From Mobula hypostoma (lineage: Eukaryota), in assembly GCF_963921235.1 (NCBI RefSeq), contig NC_086097.1, positions 150,352,001 to 150,416,000 of the forward strand: a DNA stretch of 64,000 nt, in the 5' to 3' direction. Made by a program: the position numbers and the translations under genes. Positions 4,312-64,000 of the stretch are shown in pieces. Each line of letters opens with the position of its first letter. The stretch's first letter is position 1. The notes beneath the pieces are model-generated. The model worked only from the letters and a program-made list of their open reading frames with translations. It did not search any database and was not told the DNA's origin.

Positions 4312-6710
4312 TGCCACGGTCCGGTCCGTTGACTCTTAGTTTCAGTTAATTTCCTTTTCCCCGTGTTCCACCGGGCTCCTTGATTGGGGCACCTGATCCT
4401 CATTCGAACCGGCAGCATAAAAACTTCGGATTACATCTACTCGCTGCTGGTTTGTCACCTCAGCAGTGAGGCTATGCTCGTTCCAGACCACCAAGAATGA
4501 GTCGAGTTGAGAGCCTGCCGTTCACAGTTCCTAGGTCGAGTGAAGATCCTGTCATCCGCTGCTCCTGGGTCGAGTCGAGAGCCTGCCGTGCAGCTGAGTT
4601 TTGGCGGCCGTTTCCCGCTTCACGTGCTACTCGGAGTAGAGATATAAATGGACTGTTGTTTGTTTTTGCCATCTTGTGTCCAACTGAGTATTGTTGGCCA
4701 TTTGCGGCTGCTCCAAGCCGCGATATGAACTGTCTGTTGTTGTATGGTGTTGTCGTCTCCATGTCCTAGTACAGTCCAAGCCCAGGCTCCTTGTTCCAGT
4801 CCAGTCCAAGTCCAGGCTCCGTGTTCCAGTCCAGTCCACGTCCAGGCTCCGTGTTCCACTCAGGTCCAAGTCCAGGCTCCGTGTTCCACTCAGGTCCAAG
4901 TCCAGACTCCCTGTTCAACTCAGGTTCAAGTCCAGGCTCCCTGTTCCACTCAGGTCCAAGTCCAGACTCCCTGTTCAACTCAGGTCCAAGTCCAGACTCC
5001 CTGTTCAACTCAGGTCCAAGTCCAGGCTCCGTGTTCCAGTCCAGACCAAGTCCAGGCTCCATGCTCCACTCAGGTCCAAGTCCAGGCTCTGTGTTCCAGT
5101 CCAGTCCAAGTCCAGGCTCCGTGTTCCAGTCCAGTCCAAGTCCAGGCTCCGTGTTCCACTCCAGTCCAAGTCCAGGCTCCGTGTTCCACTCCAGTCCAAG
5201 TCCAGGCTCCGTGTTCCACTCCAGTCCAAGTCCAGGCTCCGTGTTCCAGTCCAGTCCACGTCCAGGCTCCGTGTTCCACTCAGGTCCAAGTCCAGGCTCC
5301 GTGTTCCACTCAGGTCCAAGTCCAGACTCCCTGTTCAACTCAGGTCCAAGTCCAGGCTCCCTGTTCAACTCAGGTCCAAGTCCAGGCTCCGTGTTCCAGT
5401 CCAGTCCAAGTCCAGGCTCCATGCTCCACTCAGGTCCAAGTCCAGGCTCCGTGTTCCAGTCCAGTCCACGTCCAGGCTCCGTGTTACACTCAGGTCCAAG
5501 TCCAGGCTCCGTGTTACACTCAGGTCCAAGTCCAGGCTCCGTGTTCCACACAGGTCCAAGTCCAGGCTCCGTGTTCCACTCAGGTCCAAGTCCAGGCTCC
5601 GTGTCCCAGTCCAGTCCAAGTCCAGGCTCCGTGTCCCAGTCCAGTCCAAGTCCAGGCTCCGTGTTCCAGGCCAGTCCACTTCCAGGCTCCGTGTTCCACT
5701 CAGGTCCACGTCCAGGCTCCTTGTTCCACTCAGGTCCAAGTCCAGGCTCCTTGTTCCACTCAGGTCCAAGTCCAGGCTCCGTGTTCCACTCAGGTCCAAG
5801 TCCAGGCTCCGTGTTCCACACAGGTCCACGTCCAGGCTCCTTGTTCCACTCAGGTCCAAGTCCAGGCTCCGTGTTCCACTCAGGTCCAAGTCCAGGCTCC
5901 GTGTTCCACACAGGTCCACGTCCAGGCTCCATGTTCCACACAGGTCCACGTCCAGGCTCCGTGTTCCACACAGGTCCACGTCCAGGCTCCGTGTTCCACT
6001 CCAGTCCAAGTCCAGGCTCCGTGTTCCAGTCCAGCCCAAGTCCAGGCTCCTTGTTCCACTCAGGTCCATGTCCAGGCTCCATGTTCCACACAGGTCCACG
6101 TCCAGGCTCCGTGTTCCACACAGGTCCACGTCCAGGCTCCGTGTTCCACTCAGGTCCAAGTCCAGACTCCATGTTCAACTCAGGTCCAATTCCAGGCTCC
6201 GTGTTCCACTCAGGTCCAAGTCCAGGCTCCGTGTTCAACTCAGGTCCAATTCCAGGCTCCGTGTTCCACTCAGGTCCAAGTCCAGGCTCCGTGTTCCAGT
6301 CCAGTCCAAGTCCAGGCTCCGTGTTCCACTCAGGTCCAAGTCCAGACTCCGTGTTCAAATCAGGTCCAAGTCCAGGCTCCCTGTTCGACTCAGGTCCAAG
6401 TCCAGGCTCCTTGTTCAACTCAGGTCCAAGTCCAGGCTCCGTGTTCCACTCAGGTCCAAGTCCAGGCTCCGTGTTCCAGTCCAGTCCAAGTCCAGGCTCC
6501 GTGTTCCAGTCCAGTCCACGTCCAGGCTCCGTGTTCCAGTCCAGTCCACGTCCAGGCTCCGTGTTCCAGTCCAGTCCAAGTCCAGGCTCCTTATTCCACT
6601 CAAGTTCAAGTCCAGGCTCTGTGTTCCAGTCCAGTCCAAGTCTGTCTCCGTGTCAAGTCTCCGTGCCTGTGTCCTGCAATTGGGTCCACTCCCTACGCTC
6701 CACTGCAACA
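4312..6710 (+). mobile_element. Solo LTR (Gypsy, Sushi-like) inflated by an internal minisatellite
   Basis: TGCCACGGTCC...TGCAACA termini resemble the LTR at 37273-37674. 5-bp TSD AACCC/AATCC. It interrupts a CR1 reading frame. Confidence 0.8.
4771..6640. repeat. 30-bp minisatellite, about 62 copies (consensus TCCAAGTCCAGGCTCCGTGTTCCACTCAGG)
   Basis: Exact 30-bp periodicity is visible in the sequence and as 10-aa repeats in the ORF track. Confidence 0.98.
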
Positions 6711-32183: not shown

Positions 32184-32463
32184 GCAACACAGTTTGTTAT
32201 TAACATCCCCAATTGAAAATCAATTACTTAAATCTAAGTGTAAATTTTATAAACATGGTGATAAATTGGGTAAATTACTGGCCAACCAATTGAAAGCTGC
32301 TTTGGCTAAATGGCAGATTATTAAAGTTCGTAAATGGGATTGTAGCGGTGTGCTACATACAGCGCTAGAATAACCACACGGAGTCGGTGAGTTAGAGTTG
32401 CGATGAAAGAGATTTATTCAAACTTCGTGGCCTGCTTTAAAGCCTTCCCATTCCCGCCCTCCC

Positions 32464-35033
32464 AGGGAAGCTCGTCCACCCAGTTAGGCCCCTCCAGGCG
32501 GGCCATGAGAGCCGATTTCAGGTGACGGTGGAAGCGCTCCACTAGTCCGTTCAACTGTGGGTGGTAGGCGGTTGTGTGGTGTAGCTGAGATCCTAAAAGG
32601 TTGGCCATACCTGACCACAGACTGGAGGTGAACTGGGCGCCCCTGTTGGAGGTAATGTGGGCCGGTACTCCGAAGCGGGCTACCCAGGTTGCGATCAGTG
32701 CTCGGGCGCAGGATTCAGAGGTGGTGTCGGTGAGCGGGACTGCCTCTGGCCATCTGGTGAACCGGTCTATCATAGTTAGGAGGTACTGCGCTCCTCGTGA
32801 CACTGGCAGGGGCCCCACGATATCCACATGGATATGGTCGAACCTCCGGCGGGTGGGTTCGAACTGCTGCGGTGGAGCCTTGGTGTGCCGCTGCACCTTG
32901 GCCGTTTGGCACTGCATACACGTTTTGGCCCATTCACTGACCTGTTTACGCAGTCCATGCCACACGAACCTGCTGGCGACCAGCCGGATGGTTGTCCTGA
33001 TGGAGGGGTGTGCTAAGTTGTGAATGGACTCGAAAACCCGCCGGCGCCAGGCTGCTGGGACGACGGGGCGGGGTTGGCCGGTAGCTACGTCACATAGTAG
33101 GGCCCTCTCACCTGGGCCTACGGGGAGGTCTTGGAGCTGCAAACCAGAGACTGCAGTCCTGTAACTGGGGATCTCAGCGTCTGCCTGCTGTGCCTCTGCC
33201 AGCGCTGCATAGTCCACCCCCTGGGACAGGGCCTGTATGGTAGGTCTGGATAATGCATCCGCAACAACGTTGTCCTTTCCAGAGACATGCCGGATGTCCG
33301 TCGTGTACTCGGAGATCTAGGACAGATGTCGCTGCTGGCGGGACGACCAGGGGTCGGACGCCTTCATGAACGCAAAGGTAAGCGGTTTGTGGTCTGTGAA
33401 CGCAGTGAAGGGCCTACCTTCTAAGAAGTACCTGAAATGCCGGATTGCCAGGTATAGTGCCAATAGCTCCCGGTCGAAAGCACTGTATTTGAGTTCAGGT
33501 GGTTGTAGGTGTTTGCTGAAGAATGCCAGGGATTGCCAGCGACCCTCGATGAGTTGTTCCAGCACTCCACCGACCGCTGTGTTGGATGCATCCACCGTGA
33601 GGGCAGTAGGAACGTCCTTTCTGGGGTGCAGTAGCATCGCGGCGTTTGCCAAGGCTTCTTTGGTTTTAACGAAAGCAGTTGCGGCCTCTTCGTCCCAGGT
33701 AATGTCCTTGCCCTTACCCAACATCAGGGTGAACAGGGGTCGCATGGTTCGGGCTGCTGAGGGGAGGAAATGGTGGTAGAAATTCACCATACCCACGAAT
33801 TCCTGCAGGCCTTTGATTGTGTTGGGTCGGGGGAAGTTGCGGACCGCGTCTACCTTGGCAGGCAGCGGGGTTGCCCCGTCTTTAGTAATCCTGTGGCCCA
33901 GGAAGTCGATGGTGTTGCGTCCGAATTGGCATTTGGCTGGGTTGATTGTAAGGCCGAATTTGCTCAGGCGGGAGTAGAGCTGGCGGAGGTGGAACAGATG
34001 CTCCTGCCGAATACTGCTTGCTATGAGGATGTCGTCCAAATAGATGAATGCAAAGTCAAGGTCATGTCCCACCGCATCCATTAGCCGCTGGAAAGTTTGA
34101 GCGGCATTCTTTAGACCAAACGGCATTCGGAGGAATTCAAAAAGTCCGAACAGGGTGATGTGCTGTTTTGGAGATGTCGTCTGGATGTACAGGGATTTGA
34201 TGGTATCCCCGGATGAGGTCTACCTTGGAAAAGATCCTTGCGCCGTGTAGGTTTGCTGCGAAGTCTTGAATGTGCGGCACAGGGTAGCGGTCTGGCGTTG
34301 TAGCCTCGTTCAGTCTGCGGTAGTCACCGCATGGTCTCCAGCCCCCCATTGCCTTGGGCACCATGTGAAGGGGGGAGGCCCATGTGCTGTCGGACCGTCG
34401 TATGATCCCCAATTCCTCTATCTTCTTGAAATCCTCCTTCGCCAGTCGGAGATTGTTGGGGGGAAGCCTTCGAGCACGGGTGTGGAGGGGTGGTCCCTGG
34501 GTCGGGATGTGGTGCTGTACTCCGTGTCTGGGCATGGCTGCCGTGAACTGCGGTGTCAGTACTGATGGGAAATCCGCCAGGACCCTGGTGAATTCATCGT
34601 CGGACAGCGTGATGGAGTCCAGGTGTGGGGCTGGCAACTGTGCTTCACCCAGGGAGAATGTTTGAAAAGTCTTAGCGTGGACTAATCGCTTCCCTTGCAG
34701 GTCGACCAGCAGGCTGTGGGCTCGCAGAAAATCCGCCCCCAGGAGTGGTTGGGCCACGGCGACCAGTGTGAAGTTCCACGTGAACCGGCTGGAGCTGAAC
34801 TGTAGCCGCACCATGCGGGTGCCGTAGGTTCGTATTGTGCTGCCATTAGCGGTCCTCAGGGTGGGTCCCGGTTCTCTGTTGCGGGTGTCGTAACTCGTTG
34901 GAGGTAAGACGCTGATCTCCGCTCCGGTGTCGACCAAAAATCAGCGACCCGACTGCTTGTCCCAGACGTACAGGAGGCTGTCCTGATGGCCAGCCGCCGT
35001 AGCCATCAGCGGCGGCTGGCCCTGGCGTTTCCT
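32464..35033 (-). pseudogene. pol: pol (protease, RT, RNase H, integrase) with stops, a frameshift and a 3' deletion
   Basis: Motifs 'VDTGAEISV', 'YLDD', 'TVDAS', 'TDHKPL', 'HPSIR..CMQCQ', 'IHVDIVGPLP' and 'NGLVERFH'. Confidence 0.9.
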
Positions 35034-35710
35034 GGGAATTTGCAGGGTGGTCTGCAGCGGCGGGCCTCCGTGCCCCACCGCTGGTGGTAGAAACACTGTT
35101 GTTCGTTGGGCTCCTCACTCCCGTCGCCGGGTTTTGTAGGCTCTGCAACCGGGCCTGGTCTGGTCTGTCGTTGGGTACGCGGCTTGGTGATCTGTGCGAC
35201 GGATGCCCCTCTCTCTTTCCTGGCATTCCACAACACATCTGCTCGGGCCGCCACCTCCCGGGGTTCGCTGAAATCTGCATTGGACAGCAGCAGGCATATG
35301 TTCTCGGGCAGTTGCTCTAGGAACGCCTGCTCAAACATAAGGCAGGGTTTGTGTCCTTCAGCCAGGGCCAGCATCTCGTTCATTAATGCTGACGGCGGCC
35401 TGTCTCCCAAACCATCCAGGTGCATTAAGCGGCGTGCTCGTTCACACCGTGAGAGTCCGGAAGTCCTTATGAGCAGGGCTTTGAATGCTGTGTATTTGCC
35501 GTTCTCCAGGGGCAACTGTATAAACTCCTCAACTTGTGCAGCAGTCTCCTGGTCGAGTGAGCTCAGCACGTAGTAGTAGCGAGTGGACTCCGAGGTTATC
35601 TGCCGAATGTGGAATTGAGCTTCTGCTTGTTCGAACCATAAATGGGGTCGCAGCGTCCAGAAACTTGGCAGTCTTAATGAAACTGCGTGAACAGATGCAG
35701 CGTCGGTCAT
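35006..35710 (-). CDS. gag: Retrotransposon Gag (234 aa, open)
   Basis: 'LRLPSFWTLRPHLWFEQAEAQF' and the C-x2-H-x9-C-x3-C motif 'CFYHQRWGTEARRCRPPC'. Confidence 0.85.
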   Translation of the reverse strand: MTDAASVHAVSLRLPSFWTLRPHLWFEQAEAQFHIRQITSESTRYYYVLSSLDQETAAQVEEFIQLPLENGKYTAFKALLIRTSGLSRCERARRLMHLDGLGDRPPSALMNEMLALAEGHKPCLMFEQAFLEQLPENICLLLSNADFSEPREVAARADVLWNARKERGASVAQITKPRTQRQTRPGPVAEPTKPGDGSEEPNEQQCFYHQRWGTEARRCRPPCKFPGNARASRR

Positions 35711-35734
35711 CTCTGGTCCAAATATCGTTTGGGC

Positions 35735-35748
35735 CGTCGGGGTCACCA
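35735..35748 (-). promoter_or_regulatory. Primer-binding site complementary to the tRNA-Trp 3' end
   Basis: TGGTGACCCCGACG lies 2 nt downstream of the 5' LTR. Confidence 0.85.
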
Positions 35749-36959
35749 ATTGTAGCGGTGTGCTACACACAGCGCTAGAATAACCACATGGAGTCGGTGA
35801 GTTAGAGTTGCGATGAAAGAGATTTATTCAAACTTCGCAGCCTGCTTTAAAGCCTTCCCGTTCCCGCCCTCCCTGGGGCAGGATTGCTGTGGGGAATGCA
35901 TATTCCCAGACCCTTTCCGCGCGCGGGATTTTCCCCCTGCTGGTGAAGATGGCCTGGCGCCCTTTTTGGGGCCAGCCCTCTGCCTGCGCGCGCTGTTGTG
36001 AGCCGGTTCGTGTGTGCCAGAAAGTGGGTCGCCACAGGATGTTACTTTGATGGCTGATCACGATGAAATTAATAAATCTTTTCAAGAATTCTATACCTCT
36101 TTATACCAATCAGAATTTCCTGATAATTCTACCATAATGCATGAATTTTTAAGAAAATTGAATATTCTGAAATTACCACTTAATGAATGTTTAACATTAG
36201 ATGCACCCATTACAGAAGAAGAAATAAAGAAAGCAATTTCCTTGATGAATTCTAGTAAAGGACCCGGCCTGGATGGGTATACAGTAGCATTTAAAATATC
36301 TTTATCAAGTCTACTTTCTCCATGGTTATGTAGAATTTTTAAGAATGCCTTATTTGTAGGTAAATTACCACAATCTTTTTATGAAGCATCAATTCCTTTA
36401 ATTCCTAAAAAAGATAAAGATCCCACTGAATGTGCATCATGTAGACCCATAATCTTGTTAAATGTGGACTCCAAAATTTTTTCCAATCTATTAGCAATTA
36501 GATTTGAATATGTATTGCTACAAATTGTTTCTGATGACCAGACAGGGTTTATTAAAAATTGATATTCGTATTTTAATGTTAGGAGGTTGATGAACTTTGT
36601 ATATACTTCTTCATCTAAAACTCCAGAATGTGTTATTTCGCTTGATGCTTTGAAGGCGTTTGATAGAGTTGAATGGGAATATTTATTTAACATCTTTGAG
36701 AAATTCAATTTTAGCCCAAAACTCATTATCTTGGATTAAATTAATATATCATATACCTTTGGCTTCTGTACTTACTAATAACCAGAGATCCCCCTTTTTT
36801 AGGATTTTTTTGAGGTACTAAACAGGGCTGTTCTTTAAGCCCTTTACTAATTGATATTGTCTTGGAGCCCTTGGGAATTGCTCTTCGCAATATTTGGTGT
36901 TATTTGTGGGAATGAGACGCATAAGGTATCATTATATGTAGATAACCTGTTACTAAATT

Positions 36960-43200: not shown

Positions 43201-44722
43201 TACAATTGGCCCTTTGCCGCGACCACGACCTTGTCTGCCGCTGAAACCCCCGACTTATCCAAGCTTCCAGCAGAGTATCACGATCTGGGAGAAGTGTTTA
43301 GCAAGCAATGGACCCTTTCCCTGCCTCCACACCGCCCTTACGATTGCACAATTGACCTTCTCCCCTGAGCCCCTCTACCCACCAGTCAGCTGTATAACCT
43401 GTCCCGGCCAGAAAGGGAAGCAATGGAGGCTTATCTAAATGACATTCTTGCGGCGGGCATTATTCAACCCTCATCTTCCCCTAGAGGTGCACGTTTCTTC
43501 TTTGTGGGGAAGAAAGACGGCTCACTGCACCCCTGCATTGACTACCAGGGCCTGAACAGCATCACCATAAAGAATACGTATCCCTTGCCCCTTATCAACT
43601 CTGCTTTCCAACCCCTTCGTGGAGCCACCATCTTCTCTAAGTTGGACCTACTAAGTGCCTACCACCTGATCAGGATAAGGGAGGGAGATGAGTGGAAAAC
43701 AGCTTTTACACCCATCTTGGTCACTTCAAATACCCGGTCACGCCATTCGGTCTCACGAATGTCCCCGTCGTCTTCCAAGCCCTGGTAAACGATGTCCTTA
43801 GGGACTTTATTAACTGTTTCATTTTTGTTCATTTGGATGATATCTTAATCTTCTCCTGCAGTCTTCAGGATCACATCCACCATGTCCATCAGGTTCTGCA
43901 AAGGCTTTGGGAGAACAAACTATTTGTTAAAAGTGAGAAGTGCGAGATTCATGTCCCTTCTGTCAGTTTCTTTGGATACATCATCGAGAGCGGGCAAGTG
44001 AGGGTGGATCCCGAAAAGATCCGCGTGGTGGTGGAGCAACCAAAACCGACGACACTCAAACAACTCCAGCGATTTCTGGGGTTTGCAAACTTCTACTGTC
44101 GCTTCATCATGGATTACAGCCCCTTACTCGACACTTGTCCTGTGACCCCTTTTCACTGGGACCCCGAAGCGGACTCAGCCTTCTCAGAGCTGAAGAGGCG
44201 TTTCACCTCCGCTCCCATCCTGGTCCAACCTGACCCCTCTCGCCAGTTCATAGTGGAAGTTGATGCCTCCGACTGTGGAGTGGGAGCGGTCCTCTCCCAA
44301 CACTCTGGCCCAGACCAAAAACGCCATCTTTGCGCCTTCTTTTCTCGCCAGCTAACCCTGCCGAACGGAACTATGACATAGGGAACTGGGAGTTACTGGC
44401 CATCAAACTCGCTTTGGAAAAGTGGAGGCACTGGCTGGAGGGAGCAGAACATCCATTCATTGTCTGGACAGATCACAAGAATCTCGCATACATCCAAACC
44501 GCCAAATGCCTGAATTCCCGCCAAGCCCGTTGGGCATTATTTTTCGGCTGTGTTAGATTCACACTCACCTATCGTCCGGGGTCGAAGAACGGGAAGCCCG
44601 ATGCTCTCTTCCGTCAATATGTCTCCGAGGAGGGCCTTCTCAACCCCAATACCATCCTTCCACCATCCTGTGTAGTGGCTGCCCTCACCTGGGAGATCGA
44701 ATTCATAGTCAAAGAGGCCCAC
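37273..44722 (+). mobile_element. Sushi/Tf1-group (PEG10/RTL1-like) Gypsy retrotransposon, degenerate and 3'-truncated
   Basis: 5' LTR 37273-37674. Gag has 'PEHYAGDLGKCRAFLLQC', 'EEPMQLG' and '[14 protein letters not shown]'. Pol has 'LMDSGAEGN', '[16 protein letters not shown]', 'HLDDILIFS', 'EVDASD' and 'WTDHKNL'. Confidence 0.92.
38694..42815 (-). mobile_element. Retrovirus-like LTR element, internally deleted (gag plus patchwork pol, no RT core, no recognisable env)
   Basis: LTRs at 38694-39257 and ~42274-42815, TSD CCCC, PPT AAGAGGAGGG (39260-39269). Gag 41063-41743 has an MHR-like motif and zinc-knuckle remnants. Confidence 0.8.
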
Positions 44723-45625
44723 CACTTTACAATACATAAAGCTCTAACTTCTTTATCCGAGTAGGTCTTTAACATCACTAAGTTCTTCTCTAATGGAATC
44801 TTAGCAGTCTGTTATTGTCAGCCTCTGGAATTATGGACAAAGCTGACATTTTCAGTTTTACATCTGACACATCTATTGTGATCCCGATGATTTTGTGATC
44901 TGCTAAAATTATACTATGCAGTTCTAGGCGTGACAGTTCACCTTTGTCAGACTCTAGCTTGTCTGATGCTGTTTTACATTTGGTAGCTTTATGCATTTGC
45001 TTAGTTTTGTGTTTGAGACTTTTCACTCGGTTGTGCTTTTCATCTGCCTTGCACAATCTCTCTATGTGACCTTGTTTGTGACACTTTCTGCAGACCTTTG
45101 AACCACCAGTTATTTGCATCATGGAGGATTTGCCACATCAATAACATCTTCTGGCTTTTTGCACCATTCAGGGACTTTTTCTGCATTTCACATTCTAACC
45201 TCCTTTTCTGTAGTTCTGCTACATCTTTTGCTGCAGTCTAATGATACTGCAATGGTCTATGCATGTTCTAAGGTTAGGTCTCTTTCTGCCAGTAGCCTCT
45301 TTTAAGTGCTTTGAGTATGCATACCACATACAAGCCTGCCTCTTAATGCATCAGAAAGCCCATCTCGAAAGTTACAGTGCTGGGAAATTCCAAGCAATTC
45401 TGCAATGTATTCAGAATGGCTTTCACTTTAACAGATTCCTTTTGTAAAATCTGAATATCTCAGCTAATATCAGCACTTTAGAGCGCAAGTAATTTTGTAA
45501 AATTGTAACAATTTCATTGAACATCTTGCTTACCGGCTTTTCAGGGGTTACTAAGTTACTAGGACACATTAAACAAAGAAGTGTAGGGGGTTTCTTTTGC
45601 TCCTCCACATTGTTTGTGTTATATA
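44723..45625 (-). mobile_element. Gypsy (Mag-like) gag-protease relic
   Basis: 'LVTPEKP...ILAEIFRFYKRN' and the CCHC motif 'CRKCHKQGHIERLC'. Confidence 0.65.
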
Positions 45626-46568: not shown

Positions 46569-46803
46569 AAGTGTGAAATTATGCTCCTAGTAAGTCAAAT
46601 GCAGAGTATGCCTATCAACTTGGCAGTAATTATTGAAGCGATGGGATTCATTTAAAGCAAAACCTCCCTATGACTTTAATGCGGGATCACAAATGGTATG
46701 AGTGAAGGACGAAAAATTGCAGAAACATCCAGATGAAAGGACACAAATTCTACTCCTTTCTCTTCGAGAACTCATGAAGGGTCTCAGCCCAGAACATCAA
46801 CTA

Positions 46804-48054
46804 CACTGGACAACAAAAATGTTGATTCCTAAATATCTTTGGGTGCATCTTATAGATTTTGGGCTGTTGATCATGAAAATCACTGAGATTTCCCTATCAG
46901 GCACCGGTTTTTGAAATTGTCTATATGTTACTTCAATTCATAATTCGAGCCAAGATTGCATTTTGCTGGTCCACAAATCAAACAGGTCATCAATGACAGA
47001 CAAATCAAAGAACTTCTAGTGGGACCAGAGAAGAACACATGAAAGCCATTCAAGGATGTCACTGAAAATTTTTTTGACAGCTACTGAGCATCAAACTATG
47101 TGCAGCTGGCTGACATGCTTCAAACATACAAAACCATGAAGTGCAACATGTCACTATAGATTTATTTTCTGCTTTCCCATTTAGACTTCTTTCCTGCAAA
47201 CCTAGGCATTGTCAGTGATGAGCATGGTGAGAGGTTTCACCAGGACATTGCAGTCATGGAGAAACGGTATCAGGGCAACTGGAATCCATCAATGCTGGCC
47301 GATTATTGTTGGACACTTAAGTGAGAAGCTTCAAACACTCAGTACAAATGAAAATCATTAACAAAACATTTTTAGCTTATTTGAACTATTGAAAACTGTC
47401 GGCACCGTTATGCAATTAAACATGTTATGATCAATAAAAGTTAATTTTCTTGTTTCATCAAATTCCTACGATATACAGGAGTCTGAAATTATAGCCACAT
47501 CAAAGTTGCTGGTGAACGCAGCAGGCCAGGCAGCATCTCTAGGAAGAGGTACAGTCGACGTTTCAGGCCGAGACCTTTCGTCAGGACTAACTGAAGGAAG
47601 CCCACATGAAAGTTGCTGGTGTACGCAGCAGGCCAGGCAGCATCTCTAGGAAGAGGTACAGTCGACGTTTCAGGCCGTGACCCTTCGTCAGGACTAACTG
47701 AAGGAAGACACATCAAACTTGCTGGTGTACGCAGCAGGCCAGGCAGCATCTCTAGGAAGAGGTACAGTCAACGTTTCAGGCCAAGACCCTTCGTCAGGAC
47801 TAACTGAAGGAAGACACATCAAAGTTGCTGGTGAATGCAGCAAGCCAGGCAGCATCTCTAGGAAGAGGTACAGTCAACGTTTCAGGCCAAGACCCTTCGT
47901 CAGGACTAACTGAAGGAAGACATGAATTTCCAGCATCTGTAGAATTCCTGTTGTTTGCGTCTGAAATTATATTTGTGTTCAGTTTCAAGCTGTCTATCAT
48001 AAACAAAACAAAATACGGAGGAAGCAAAGGTTCCAAAAAAATTGTTGTCCGGTG
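46804..48054 (+). mobile_element. Chapaev3 (CMC) DNA transposon, internally deleted
   Basis: TIRs CACTGGACAACAA and TTGTTGTCCGGTG, 3-bp TSD CTA. Transposase C-terminus 'SHLDFFPANLGIVSDEHGERFHQDIAVMEKRYQGNWNPSMLADYCWTL' at ~47174-47320. Confidence 0.88.
47494..47958 (-). repeat. Four tandem 106-107-bp PLE pLTR units, each with a hammerhead motif, plus a short inverted end
   Basis: Units start at 47497, 47604, 47710 and 47816. Hammerheads lie at 47552-47589, 47659-47696, 47765-47802 and 47871-47908. 13-bp TSD GTCTGAAATTATA (47481-47493 and 47959-47971). Confidence 0.9.
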
Positions 48055-49399
48055 CTATTTATTCCTCTCCATAAATGCTGCCTGACTTGATGAATTCCTT
48101 CAGTGTTTTGTGTGTGTTGCTCAAGATTTCTAGCATCTACAGAATTTATTGTGTTTATGAAAGGATGCAAATGTTATTTACAGCATTTCTTTGTCAGGGC
48201 TCTTGCTCAATTGTTAGAGTGAGGAATGAGAGAACTTCCATGAAAATGTTGTGGTTTAGGCCTCCTCTACAAATCACACAGGTAGTGTCAGTTAGCAAGC
48301 TCTCAATAAGCAAACACAAGGCTTGATGGTAACTGGAGGAGTGCCAGGGGCACTAAACTCCAGCATCATGTATGAAGCAGAGGATTATCTTCAGCAGTTA
48401 AAAATTCTCCTTTTCCAAACAAGTTCATAGAAAGCTTACTCCCACATTTACCATTCAATGGACAACATCAAGTGTGAAAAATCTGCGTGCACTATCTCAG
48501 CTCTAGTTTATGAAGCAATACTTCAAAATTATAATTAGAAGAGTTTGAGTAAAATGAGTGAAGCAAACAATAGTAGAAATGAAGATGACCTAGTTGCAGG
48601 TTTCTGGGAGAAAGTAGCAGAAGCATCATATCTTATCAGGAACAGCAGGCTTTGTAGCAAATTCAATAATATTTTTCTGTTTGCTTCACTTTTGACATTG
48701 TCTTCTCATGACTAACTCCAAGACATTGTGTCTCTCAATCAAAGTCCAATTTACTGAAATCTCACCAAATACACATACCACTCCTCGTGGGATTTGGCAT
48801 GCATCAGACTAATTGTCAAATTAAATTTCTATTAGAGTTGGTTACTTCACACACTGACATATTTGCTCGGCTTTTCCTCCAGACCAAAACCTTCCAGCCA
48901 TATAACTTCCTTTCACATAATTGCATTGTTTCAAGAAAATGACATCCCATATGACAAAATGGGTAGAACCTGATCAGTTAATTCATCAAATCTTCCCAAA
49001 TGGCTGGCAAACTACTCAAAGGAGTCAATTCATTCATTTCAGTTGTTCTTTACTGAAGTCACTCTGTTGATTAATTAAACAGCTGTTTCAAGAGAAAGAC
49101 ATTCCGTTGTGTTAACTAGGAATTAGGTAATGAATACCAGACTAAAAATGTTCTCATCTCTTAAATTAATAATAATAAAAAAAACAGTTTGGCAAATTTT
49201 TGAAGTCTTGCCATAGATTTCTTACCCAGGCTGAGAAAAACTTCTTGGAATGTGGTACATGAAGACATTGGCTTGTGTGCTATTAGACAACTGAGTAGCC
49301 ATCTTTATCACAGGGCAGATGATGAAAGAGTCCCTGAGAAGAAACAACATAAAGATTAGATCCCAAGCCTTAGAACTGTATAGGAATATAAACACATTT

Positions 49400-60660: not shown

Positions 60661-63600
60661 TGTGGTAAACCATATATATGTTGTAACTGGGTTACCTGTC
60701 TGGACACACCCCTCTGCTGACTGCCCCTGTGGCTCCTCCCACAGAACCCTGAACAAAGATGATTTCGCCTTGCCCTCCCCGTCAGTCCCGGGGGCAGACA
60801 CTCACCATGGAGGCCGTATTGTACAGTGAATAAAAGCCTTTCAGTATTTTACCCAACTTCAGTCTTTTGGAGTTATTGAAGGTGCTTCAATTTTATTCGC
60901 TGTAAATTTTAAAGCATGGAACATCCTCTGAGACCCAACAATTTAGACCTCGATCCGCAAACGCCTGAAGCTGGAAATGCTTTCGACCTCTGGCTGGCCT
61001 GCTTCGAAGCGTACCTAGAGGAGGTTAAAGCAACTGACACCATAGTGAAGCGCAGAGTTCTACTCTCCAGGGTCAGTCCACAGTTCTATTCACTGATCAG
61101 AGACCAGCCGAGCTATGACGGCGCGATGAGCGCCCTCAAAGGACAATATCTGCGGCCCGTAAACAGCGTCTATGCGCAGCATTGCTTAGCGACACAGCAA
61201 CAGCGGCCCGGGGAATCAAGTGCTGAGTTCGTCCAGGCCCTACGGACGCTCGTGCGAGCCTGCAATTGCCAGGAGCTGACAGCGGCGCAGCATGCAGAAC
61301 TCCTAGTGAGGGACGCCTTCGTCACGGGGACCAGGTCAGTGTATGTGCGCCAGTGGCTGCTGGAAAAAGCCGATCTTACCTTAAGTTCGGTGATTGAGCT
61401 GGCCAACATGCTGGAGGCCGCTCTACATAACTCCGAGGCTCTCCAGGCACGCGATCCCCCGATGGCCTCGTGGGAGCTGCAGACCCCGCAACCTGCCGGT
61501 GAATCGACCTCGGCTGCCGCCAGTCGCGAGTCTGCGAAGTGCTACTTCTGCGGACTCGAGAAGCACCCCCGTAAACGCTGCCCGGCCCGACAAGCTACCT
61601 GCTCCAGCTGCGAAAAGAAGGGCCACTTTGCCAAGGTCTGTAAGTCCAAACCGCGAGCGAGATCGAGCAGCACCGCATGCGAAACATGGGGGTCGCCATC
61701 TTGCCTGCCGCCATTTTCCCTGCACACCGCCACCACGTGCGAGACATGGGGGCCGCCATTTTCCCTGCACGCCGCCACCACGTGCAAGACATGGGGCAGC
61801 CATCTTGGTTGGCGCCACCTCGCACCGCCTACGACCAACGGGTGCTCACGGGGCACCCCACCGTGCCGGACCAAGACGGCGACTCAACCCTGGCCTCCGT
61901 GACCCTCGACCAAAGCGCTCCCCACCAGCTCGCAAGGTCAGTGATGGACATCCTGGTGGGGGGGGCGCAGGACAAGCTGCCTGTTTGATACAGGCAGCAC
62001 AGAGAGTTTTAACCACCCAGACTCGGTGCAGCATTGCGGACTCATGATACGGCCGGTAAGTCAGAGGGTCACCATGGCTTCCGGGTCGCATACAACAGAC
62101 ATCTGGGGGGGTTGTGTAGCGACACTAGTGGTGCAGGGCACAGAATATCGAGACTTTACGTTACTGGTCATGCCTCAACTGTGTGCCCCTGTGCTATTGG
62201 GGCTCAACTTCCAGAGCCACCTGAAAAGCGTGACAATGAGGTATGATGGGCCCCTCTCACCAATCACTGTCGTAAATCCCCAGTTTTGTAGGGATACGTC
62301 ACATACCCTGTGTGACGAAAGAGGGTTACAAAAAGTACACATAGATTAAGATGTTAACCGTCCTGTGCTGGCACCAGTGGGATCAACAGTTGATCTGCCA
62401 CCTGTCTTCAGGAGAAAGAGAGATAAGGAAGACAATGGAGCAGCATTTGGAAATGTTAATGAAGAGACGAGAGTTTAACGGAAGGAGACACCGGTCTGAG
62501 AACTGTCAAGATCGGCTCCTGTTTGAACCCTGAACTGTTTGAAGTGTGATGGACAGGTGATACCCCAGCAGGGGGATAAAAAGGGACAGGTTCGCTAAGG
62601 CAGGACACACACGACACCACGAGGTAACGAGACCCTGGAAGCTGTGCGTCTCCCACAAGTCGGTGGGAGTTTTTGAAGGGCTGGTCGCGGGACTGAGCCA
62701 TAGACGCACAGGGTGGAAAGGTACGATCGGAGGGAACCTGGTGTGTGTCGGCCCTTGCCTGGGTGCCAGGTTCACTGCAGGGAAACAATCGTATCTGGAA
62801 ACGGAGGGGTCACAGTTGGTGACCTCAGATGACATCACAAAGGGCTCGCCCGAAAGCTGACTGCGAGGAATATCGAAGGTCTGTGTGGAAGCCGTTTTGA
62901 ATATTCATTTGCTTTCGCCCTCTCTCTCCTTCCCCCCTCTCTCCCACGGCACGGCAGTGATAACTGTGAACTGAACTGAACTCAATTGAACTGAACTTTG
63001 CGTCACTTTGAAACTGGTCATTTACCCCTAGACGACGATAGAGCTTGATTGATCCTATTATCCTAGTTCTGTGGACATGTGTGCTTATCATTGCTGAACC
63101 GTTGCATTTATTATTCTTTCGATTAGAGTACTGTGTTGCTTATTTCTTTAATAAAACTTCCTTAGTTCCAGTAATCCAGACTCCAACTGAGTGATCCACT
63201 TCTGCTGGTTTGGCAACCCAGTTACGGGGTACATTACACCCGCTACTGACCACACACACACACCGATCCGCACATCCCACCCAACACCATGCCAACAGCC
63301 ACACTACGGACCCCACTTGTGGCCTCTCCACCCTCAAGATCCCTCCCTCACTGCTGTTCGCCAACCTGACCTCCGACTGTAAACCTGTTGCAGCTAAAAG
63401 CAGGAGGTACAGCGCGGGGGACAGAGCTTTCATTAAGTCGGAGGTGCAGCGGCTGCTCAGGGAGGGGGTCATTGAGACAAGCACAAGTCCTTGGAGGGTG
63501 CAGGTGGTCGTTGTTCGGAACAGGGAGAAGAATAGGATGGTCGTGGACTATAGCCAGACCATCAATAGGTTCACGCAGCTCGACGCGTACCCTCTACCCC

Positions 63601-64000
63601 GCATCGCGGATATGGTCAATCAGATAGCACAGTACAAGGTGTACTCAACCATAGACCTAAAATCCGCTTACCATCAGCTCCCCATCTGCCGGGAGGACTG
63701 CCCTTACACTGCCTTCGAGGCGGACGGCAGGCTTTATCAATTCCTGCGCGTCCTCTTTGGTGTCACGAATGGTGTTTCTGTCTTCCAGAGGGCAATGGAC
63801 CGGATGGTGGACCAGTGCTAACTGAAAGCCACGTTCCCATACCTGGATAACATCACCATCTGCGGTCATGACCAGCAGGATCACGACAACAACCTCCAAA
63901 GATTTCTTCAAGCGGCCAAAGCTTTCAATCTTACCTATAACGAGGACAAATGTGTGTTCGGGACCACCCGACTTGCTATACTTGGGTGTGTCGTGGAGAA
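60661..64000 (+). mobile_element. Ty3/Gypsy retrotransposon (5' LTR ~60661-60889, gag, protease, RT; runs off the window)
   Basis: Gag from 60916 has two knuckles, 'CYFCGLEKHPRKRCPA' and 'CSSCEKKGHFAKVC'. Protease 'LFDTGS'; RT 'SPWRVQVVVV..RMVVDY..DAYPLP..IDLKSAYHQ'. Frameshifts are present and there is a stop at 63819-63821. Confidence 0.9.
62311..63238 (+). mobile_element. Solo LTR inserted between the protease and RT regions
   Basis: TGTGAC...TTACA termini, TSD CCTG/CCCG, GATAAAA TATA-like site at ~62575, AATAAA at ~63150. Confidence 0.8.

Follow-up and report, generated by a model that had tools for sequence, protein, structure and literature searches.

A four-unit hammerhead array in Mobula hypostoma is likely an ordinary Penelope-like element end insertion that was expanded locally

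Four tandem units of about 106 bp, each carrying a hammerhead ribozyme motif on the minus strand, lie in a 64,000-nt stretch of Mobula hypostoma DNA (the window), and they raise the question of whether a very small retrozyme has been mobilised by a Penelope-like element (PLE) or whether the repeat arose from the insertion of the element itself. In this study, we find that the array is real and likely an ordinary PLE end insertion that was expanded locally. The repeat structure is as had been claimed from the sequence: TRF places it at 47496-47922 with a period of 106, 4.0 copies, 95% matches and a score of 754, and the motif is present in all four units. The units differ from one another at 4-7 of 106 positions, and their first spacing is 107. 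Two features were overlooked in the original prediction, namely a first unit junction that is unlike junctions 2 and 3, and a 38-bp piece of the same element that follows the array in the opposite orientation. In coordinates counted from the predicted cleavage site, the unit spans -44..+61 and the opposite piece +69..+106. The features of the locus are as follows.

46860..48060, plus strand (limits approximate): host, a decayed dispersed repeat with a broken transposase-like frame, split by the insertion
47481..47493, plus strand: left copy of the target-site duplication (TSD), an exact repeat, single copy in five paralogous empty sites
47496..47602, minus strand: unit 1, PLE terminal repeat, 107 bp, with the variant junction
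47553..47588, minus strand: minimal type I hammerhead of unit 1, GUC
47603..47708, minus strand: unit 2, with a rare change at unit position 20 in common with unit 3
47660..47695, minus strand: minimal type I hammerhead of unit 2, GUC
47709..47814, minus strand: unit 3, position 20 as in unit 2 and CpG decays (positions 62, 75) as in unit 4
47766..47801, minus strand: minimal type I hammerhead of unit 3, GUU
47815..47920, minus strand: unit 4, which terminates at the inversion junction
47872..47907, minus strand: minimal type I hammerhead of unit 4, GUU
47923..47960, plus strand: PLE 'tail' (+69..+106), the second insertion arm, whose last 2 bases overlap the TSD
47959..47971, plus strand: right copy of the TSD, an exact repeat

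The perfect 13-bp repeat GTCTGAAATTATA that flanks the insert was correctly recognised before, and in five paralogous copies of the host repeat the same 13 bp are present once, with the left and right flanks contiguous. Since these paralogues represent empty sites, the flanking repeat is a genuine TSD. The earlier statement that the array was inserted as one event is borne out for the insertion itself, which has one TSD, and not for the number of units. The five paralogues match the host flanks (47200-47493 and 47972-48065) at 77-86% identity. The transposase-like frame of the host is seen in the translation of 46850-47400, and from its motif the repeat may be a Chapaev-like DNA transposon. 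Inspection by eye of frames of at least 110 aa revealed no host gene near the array, a scan that short exons would escape. Beside the host repeat, positions 48055-48160 and 46775-46800 hold plus-strand fragments of an older, decayed and related Penelope-end subfamily. Elsewhere in the window we observed a 30-bp minisatellite of 62.7 copies that is open in several frames (4774-6653) and, by eye, LTR-retrotransposon-like gag, RT and integrase frames (32414-35827, 43369-44764 and 60913-63821), while most other long frames resemble LINE fragments, likewise by eye.

The origin of the unit can be read from its relatives. It also matches positions 1261-1365 and 1836-1940 of the window, and in the 3.48-Gb genome one 31-mer of the unit has 39,168 exact matches and another 24-mer has 89,095. 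In three longer copies (L095, L108 and L027), the sequence upstream of the same terminal repeat extends into frames with RT motifs, a CKRNKCYTC cysteine linker upstream of the GIY-YIG motif, and a GIY-YIG domain; Pfam RVT_1 was matched at E=9e-5 and GIY-YIG at E=0.002, both below the Pfam curated cut-offs. Judged from this arrangement, an abundant EN+ Penelope-like element (RT plus GIY-YIG) has this unit as its terminal repeat, in agreement with the PLE origin first proposed. A Zn-finger-like cysteine linker between RT and endonuclease is described for the Neptune clade and also for Nematis in the available text of PMC8557442, and the parent element likewise has RT, cysteine linker and GIY-YIG, a clade likeness by domain layout. 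The window also contains, at 1261-1984, another two-armed member of this family, with one arm running from about +61 into the body and the opposite arm carrying the tail, bordered by a short direct repeat.

The 38-bp inverted tail gives the insert at the array the standard head-to-head layout of its family. Two-armed head-to-head insertions were found at 48 of 95 distinct places, in a sample that is enriched for arrays and includes the window insert; one end fell at +58..+76 in 39/48 and the other at +101..+106 in 42/48, with a TSD of 11-17 bp in 39/48 and of 13-14 bp in 27/48. With its ends at +61 and +106 and its TSD of 13 bp, the window insert is thus built as most of the two-armed insertions sampled, and it shows the features by which a PLE insertion is recognised, that is, inverted and partial-tandem repeats with a tail, and a TSD with an empty site. 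Inverted arms and a tail of 30-40 bp on one side are described for PLEs in the accessible parts of PMC3846280 and PMC8557442. With an anole PLE protein in vitro, both strands of the target were cut and extended, reverse transcription began at two sites bounding the tail, and ribozyme mutants were without effect on insertion (PMC11167929). The array shares with the EN+ PLEs of these sources (the first two as far as their text is available) the head-to-head arms, the tail on one arm only and the TSD, and its family shares with them two RT start zones about 35-40 nt apart and heavy 5' truncation. Unlike them, the insert is without a coding body, one of its arms is repeated four times and the other consists of the tail only. 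The 5' ends of the arrays cluster at -41..-65, and the idea that position -44 marks the start of transcription or a fixed end of the element was considered; this was rejected since the clustering was forced by the search pattern.

We consider it probable that the locus is one truncated two-armed PLE insertion whose hammerhead-bearing 106-bp arm was multiplied at the site by DNA-level duplication until there were four copies, the motifs being passengers. The element endonuclease would have cut both target strands, the RT would have begun one cDNA at the internal start and another at the tail end, and both cDNAs would have stopped early. The first tandem may then have formed during or soon after the joining of the arms, aided by the imperfect microhomology GAAGGAAGA/CAAGCAACA, and later unequal-exchange duplications, after mutations had accumulated, would have led to four units.

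All four units read AGUC-CUGACGA-A-RGGU(CNNG)GCCU-GAAA-C-GUH-GACU on the minus strand, with the CUGANGA and GAAA boxes, helices I and II, the ACGU palindrome and the NUH triplet of the minimal PLE hammerhead, so that the motif was rightly identified as the minimal type I hammerhead of Penelope-like elements. The predicted cleavage-to-cleavage lengths are 106, 106 and 107. Our alignment also agrees with the earlier description of the differences within the motif, which fall in loop II (units 2, 3 and 4), at H17 (C>U in units 3 and 4) and at one pair that changes from G.U to A-U (unit 1). A search of the window against Rfam at the gathering threshold gave 0 matches, which is no argument against a minimal hammerhead. 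For the minimal hammerhead of a PLE terminal repeat, no cleavage of the monomer and low cleavage of dimers and trimers are reported in the available text of PMC4209133. The array motif resembles it in having no helix III, a palindromic 15.2-16.2, an extra base between 9 and 10.1 and a short helix I, whereas helix II has 4 bp instead of 7-8 and position 11.1 is U in the array's subfamily instead of C.

These motifs speak for the idea that the array is a true small retrozyme, in which a self-cleaved circular RNA of 106 nt underwent four rounds of reverse transcription by PLE proteins and was inserted. The four motifs are complete and hold tolerated changes only, and neighbouring ACGU palindromes could pair as helix III, as was suggested, so that in principle a nested double hammerhead could form for each neighbouring pair; PMC4209133, as far as its text is available, also contains a proposal of circular templates beside its low dimeric cleavage. 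In the folding model, which is of the nearest-neighbour type and ignores tertiary contacts and proteins, the double-hammerhead fold of each neighbouring pair is predicted to lie 15.4-18.5 kcal/mol above the minimum-energy fold, and the pairing probability of helices I and II in the whole array is at most 0.06, which argues against it. GUU is a poorer cleavage triplet, and its occurrence in two units also speaks against the retrozyme. The tail lies outside the unit and would not be contained in a circle of 106 nt, and both ends of the array fall on the unit junction. Overall, we give a retrozyme of this kind a very slight chance.

The tolerated changes themselves deserve some caution. All 4/4 independent changes within the motifs of the array are tolerated, compared with 30/68 substitutions in 43 dispersed colinear copies (out of 60 chosen by a word outside the motif), 22 of which are intact, and from the dispersed-copy rate the chance of 4/4 is about 0.03-0.04. 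This hints at selection on the motif and counts against the passenger reading. The figure is weak since there were at least 27 multi-copy arrays to choose from and intact motifs were what the original prediction had sought, and the comparison is further weakened by truncation edges, which were counted as changes. The motifs were probably carried along as passengers, not as the engine of a spreading RNA circle.

A mobile unit is expected to leave its junction at independent loci, and a junction unique to this locus had been named beforehand as one of three results that would refute the retrozyme. This result was obtained: the exact unit junction has 2 matches in the genome, both inside the array; a junction 31-mer searched with up to 2 mismatches finds these 2 again and no others, and the junction with a gap of 0-12 nt gives one extra match, an unrelated junction. 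Thus neither a source nor a sister copy of the junction was found in the genome, and the same tandem unit was not seen at independent loci. The same type of search did recover a re-mobilised tandem elsewhere, which serves as a positive control: one tandem end occurs at two loci whose flanks differ. The same 62-bp element-end tandem is present at L125:1486-1701 (C12, 66.74 Mb) and L126:1486-1701 (C12, 73.09 Mb), with a common junction and one private change, and has 2 copies genome-wide. L125 runs at least 750 nt into the element body, and L126 has its own 15-bp TSD and an inverted arm. This double-hammerhead end seems to have passed uncut through a linear transcript, and since the flanks differ, tandems can pass through RNA in this PLE family, a point against local duplication. 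Further repeated junctions at C52 (2 places) and C90 (8 places, 3 of them examined) were considered as re-mobilised tandems and rejected: they share 1.7-3.1 kb with the flanks included and are segmental duplications instead.

L125/L126 set a precedent, with the same tandem and a private change between different flanks, for another origin of the array: the source PLE may already have been tandem-ended, and a linear, uncut transcript would have brought the tandem along, with the source since lost or missing from the assembly. Against this, no second copy of the junction was found for the array studied here, which stops at the unit junction on both sides and is not joined to any element body. We see only a slight chance for a tandem-ended source.

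Comparable arrays arise whether the ribozyme is whole or not. A census by four gapped-pattern searches, plus one locus from the gapped-junction search, covered 116 loci at 72 places, with a TRF array at 65/72; the patterns required exact matches with gaps of 46-137 and 60-90 only, and 25/25, 30/65, 30/92 and 30/79 matches were taken, so that the array totals are lower bounds. Their periods range from 37 to 147 bp and fall into 64 distinct period/span classes, and nearly every array has a junction of its own. A unit that includes the whole motif is found in 45/65 arrays, in 13/27 of those with about three or more copies and in 5/12 of those with about four or more, the 7/72 places without a TRF array being excluded from these counts and at least one counted array (L146) belonging to a related subfamily. 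In other words, 14/27 arrays with three or more copies are without a whole ribozyme, and about half of the multi-copy arrays thus weigh against the small retrozyme. With a private junction, a tail outside the unit and arrays of this kind, the proposal that the array was mobilised as a 106-nt unit is not sustained. The longest array examined in this subfamily is a 45-bp minisatellite of at least 37 copies with a higher-order period of 314 bp (L077:1477-3149; C67:45319300-45321470), joined to a truncated PLE arm; its unit is the 5' part of the hammerhead, without the cleavage site or the 3' strand of helix I. In the related subfamily, L146:1118-3048 (C2, 15.84 Mb) has a 42-bp unit in about 46 copies, which from its sequence would cover roughly the whole minimal hammerhead (-31..+9), making it the best candidate in the sample for a dense hammerhead array.

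The history of the four units can be followed in their shared changes. Compared with a family majority built from 40 family pieces, all four units have one change in common, and units 1-4 carry a further 1, 3, 4 and 4 changes. Position 20 A>T is common to units 2 and 3 and occurs in 125 of 89,220 family words (0.14%), and the two CpG decays at positions 62 and 75 are common to units 3 and 4. When independent decay was simulated, three shared changes including one non-CpG change had P=0.0007-0.012, and for three shared changes of any kind P rose to as much as 0.30 with the heaviest weighting of CpG sites. When sharing of the CpG type alone is counted, three shared changes are not rare, and this counts against local duplication. 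Rare variants common to neighbouring units favour DNA-level duplication after insertion over joint arrival, and thereby the local duplication that the original prediction had placed last among its alternatives. A dimer followed by two unequal-exchange duplications fits all three shared changes without repeated mutation. In addition, the array begins and ends at a unit junction (4.0 copies); since a circular template would not require this, the array ends also favour local duplication. Junction 1 is separated from junctions 2 and 3 by about three changes, and a model of pure descent therefore needs a later cluster of mutations, which counts against it. At 47595-47612, junction 1 resembles the left end of the insert (GCCACAT) and the inversion junction (CATGAA), as if it had been locally templated during repair, a likeness that may also be due to chance.

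The same data bear on the possibility that all four units were made during insertion, with the RT running off the 5' end of the RNA (-44) and repeatedly re-priming at +61, and with later gene conversion spreading a few mutations between neighbours. Possible gene conversion among jointly inserted units would yield the same shared variants, which counts against local duplication. The re-entry point lies within the internal start zone of the family (+58..+76), and at the junction GAAGGAAGA matches CAAGCAACA, the sequence normally beyond +61, at 6/9 positions; this microhomology could seed RT re-priming or a repair duplication, and the first copy is compatible with either. The changes of units 1-4 from the family majority are near the 3% mean of dispersed copies, junction 1 is unlike the others, as a separately formed junction might be, and the repeat abuts the inversion junction in many other arrays. 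However, at least two extra conversion events are needed for the three shared changes, and three jumps must have landed on the same base, though starts in the family vary over about 18 positions. Other arrays also have higher-order periods (61/122 bp; 45/314 bp with at least 37 copies), which are typical of DNA-level expansion. Thus, we regard creation at insertion as unlikely and prefer duplication in place after a two-armed insertion.

It is important to set the array against retrozymes already described. According to the accessible text of the preprint by Li, Clavereau and Pollet 2026 (bioRxiv 10.64898/2026.07.22.740005), vertebrate non-LTR retrozymes are tandems with at least two consecutive complete hammerheads, have units of 51-972 bp, occur in a cartilaginous fish among others, and are proposed to derive from PLE terminal repeats (pLTR) by local amplification of an inserted end; cleavage of the dimer was observed in 1/9 tested. 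By motif and TRF, and leaving aside their rnabob/energy filter, the array falls under this operational definition as far as it can be read there, and its size is unexceptional. It resembles these retrozymes, as described in the same text, in being a tandem of pLTR-derived units with a complete hammerhead each and a length within the range, and it is unlike them in having a single-locus junction, its own TSD and tail, and no family of tandem copies. The metazoan non-LTR retrozymes of Cervera and de la Pena 2020 (PMC7229834) are, in the part of that paper available, families present at multiple loci, about 170-400 nt in length and with canonical hammerheads, for which circular RNAs were demonstrated and dimeric cleavage was proposed. 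The array likewise has tandem type I hammerhead repeats, but, compared with that account, its motif is minimal, its unit is 106 nt and it is known at one locus and from DNA sequence alone. The 24 sequencing runs on record are all contigs and none is listed as RNA; four of them aligned to one junction gave, among the pieces listed, none bridging it, four aligned to the right border gave no cover of the locus-specific flank 48166-48300, and the runs were left out of the evidence on expression or presence of the locus. The array is an ordinary case, a further example of an already described kind.

There is a slender chance that the locus is a retrozyme caught at birth, in which local duplication of a Penelope end made a tandem of four intact minimal hammerheads, and predicted minus-strand read-through would give 106-nt monomers by double-hammerhead cleavage, and circles that the still-abundant parent PLE could re-insert.

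By itself, the array is of little consequence, since the genome holds dozens of such private repeats of an end that belongs to a common retrotransposon. Taken together, the arrays lend support to the published view that local amplification of a Penelope end can give rise to a vertebrate 'non-LTR retrozyme', and a filter for tandem plus hammerhead counts by-products as retrozymes unless the sharing of junctions between loci is checked. If the dimer of the array does cleave and make circles, the locus would offer a small model, open to dating, of how retrozymes originate. If the birth of a retrozyme was indeed caught here, the dozens of private arrays would be a natural series for the unit lengths that allow self-propagation.
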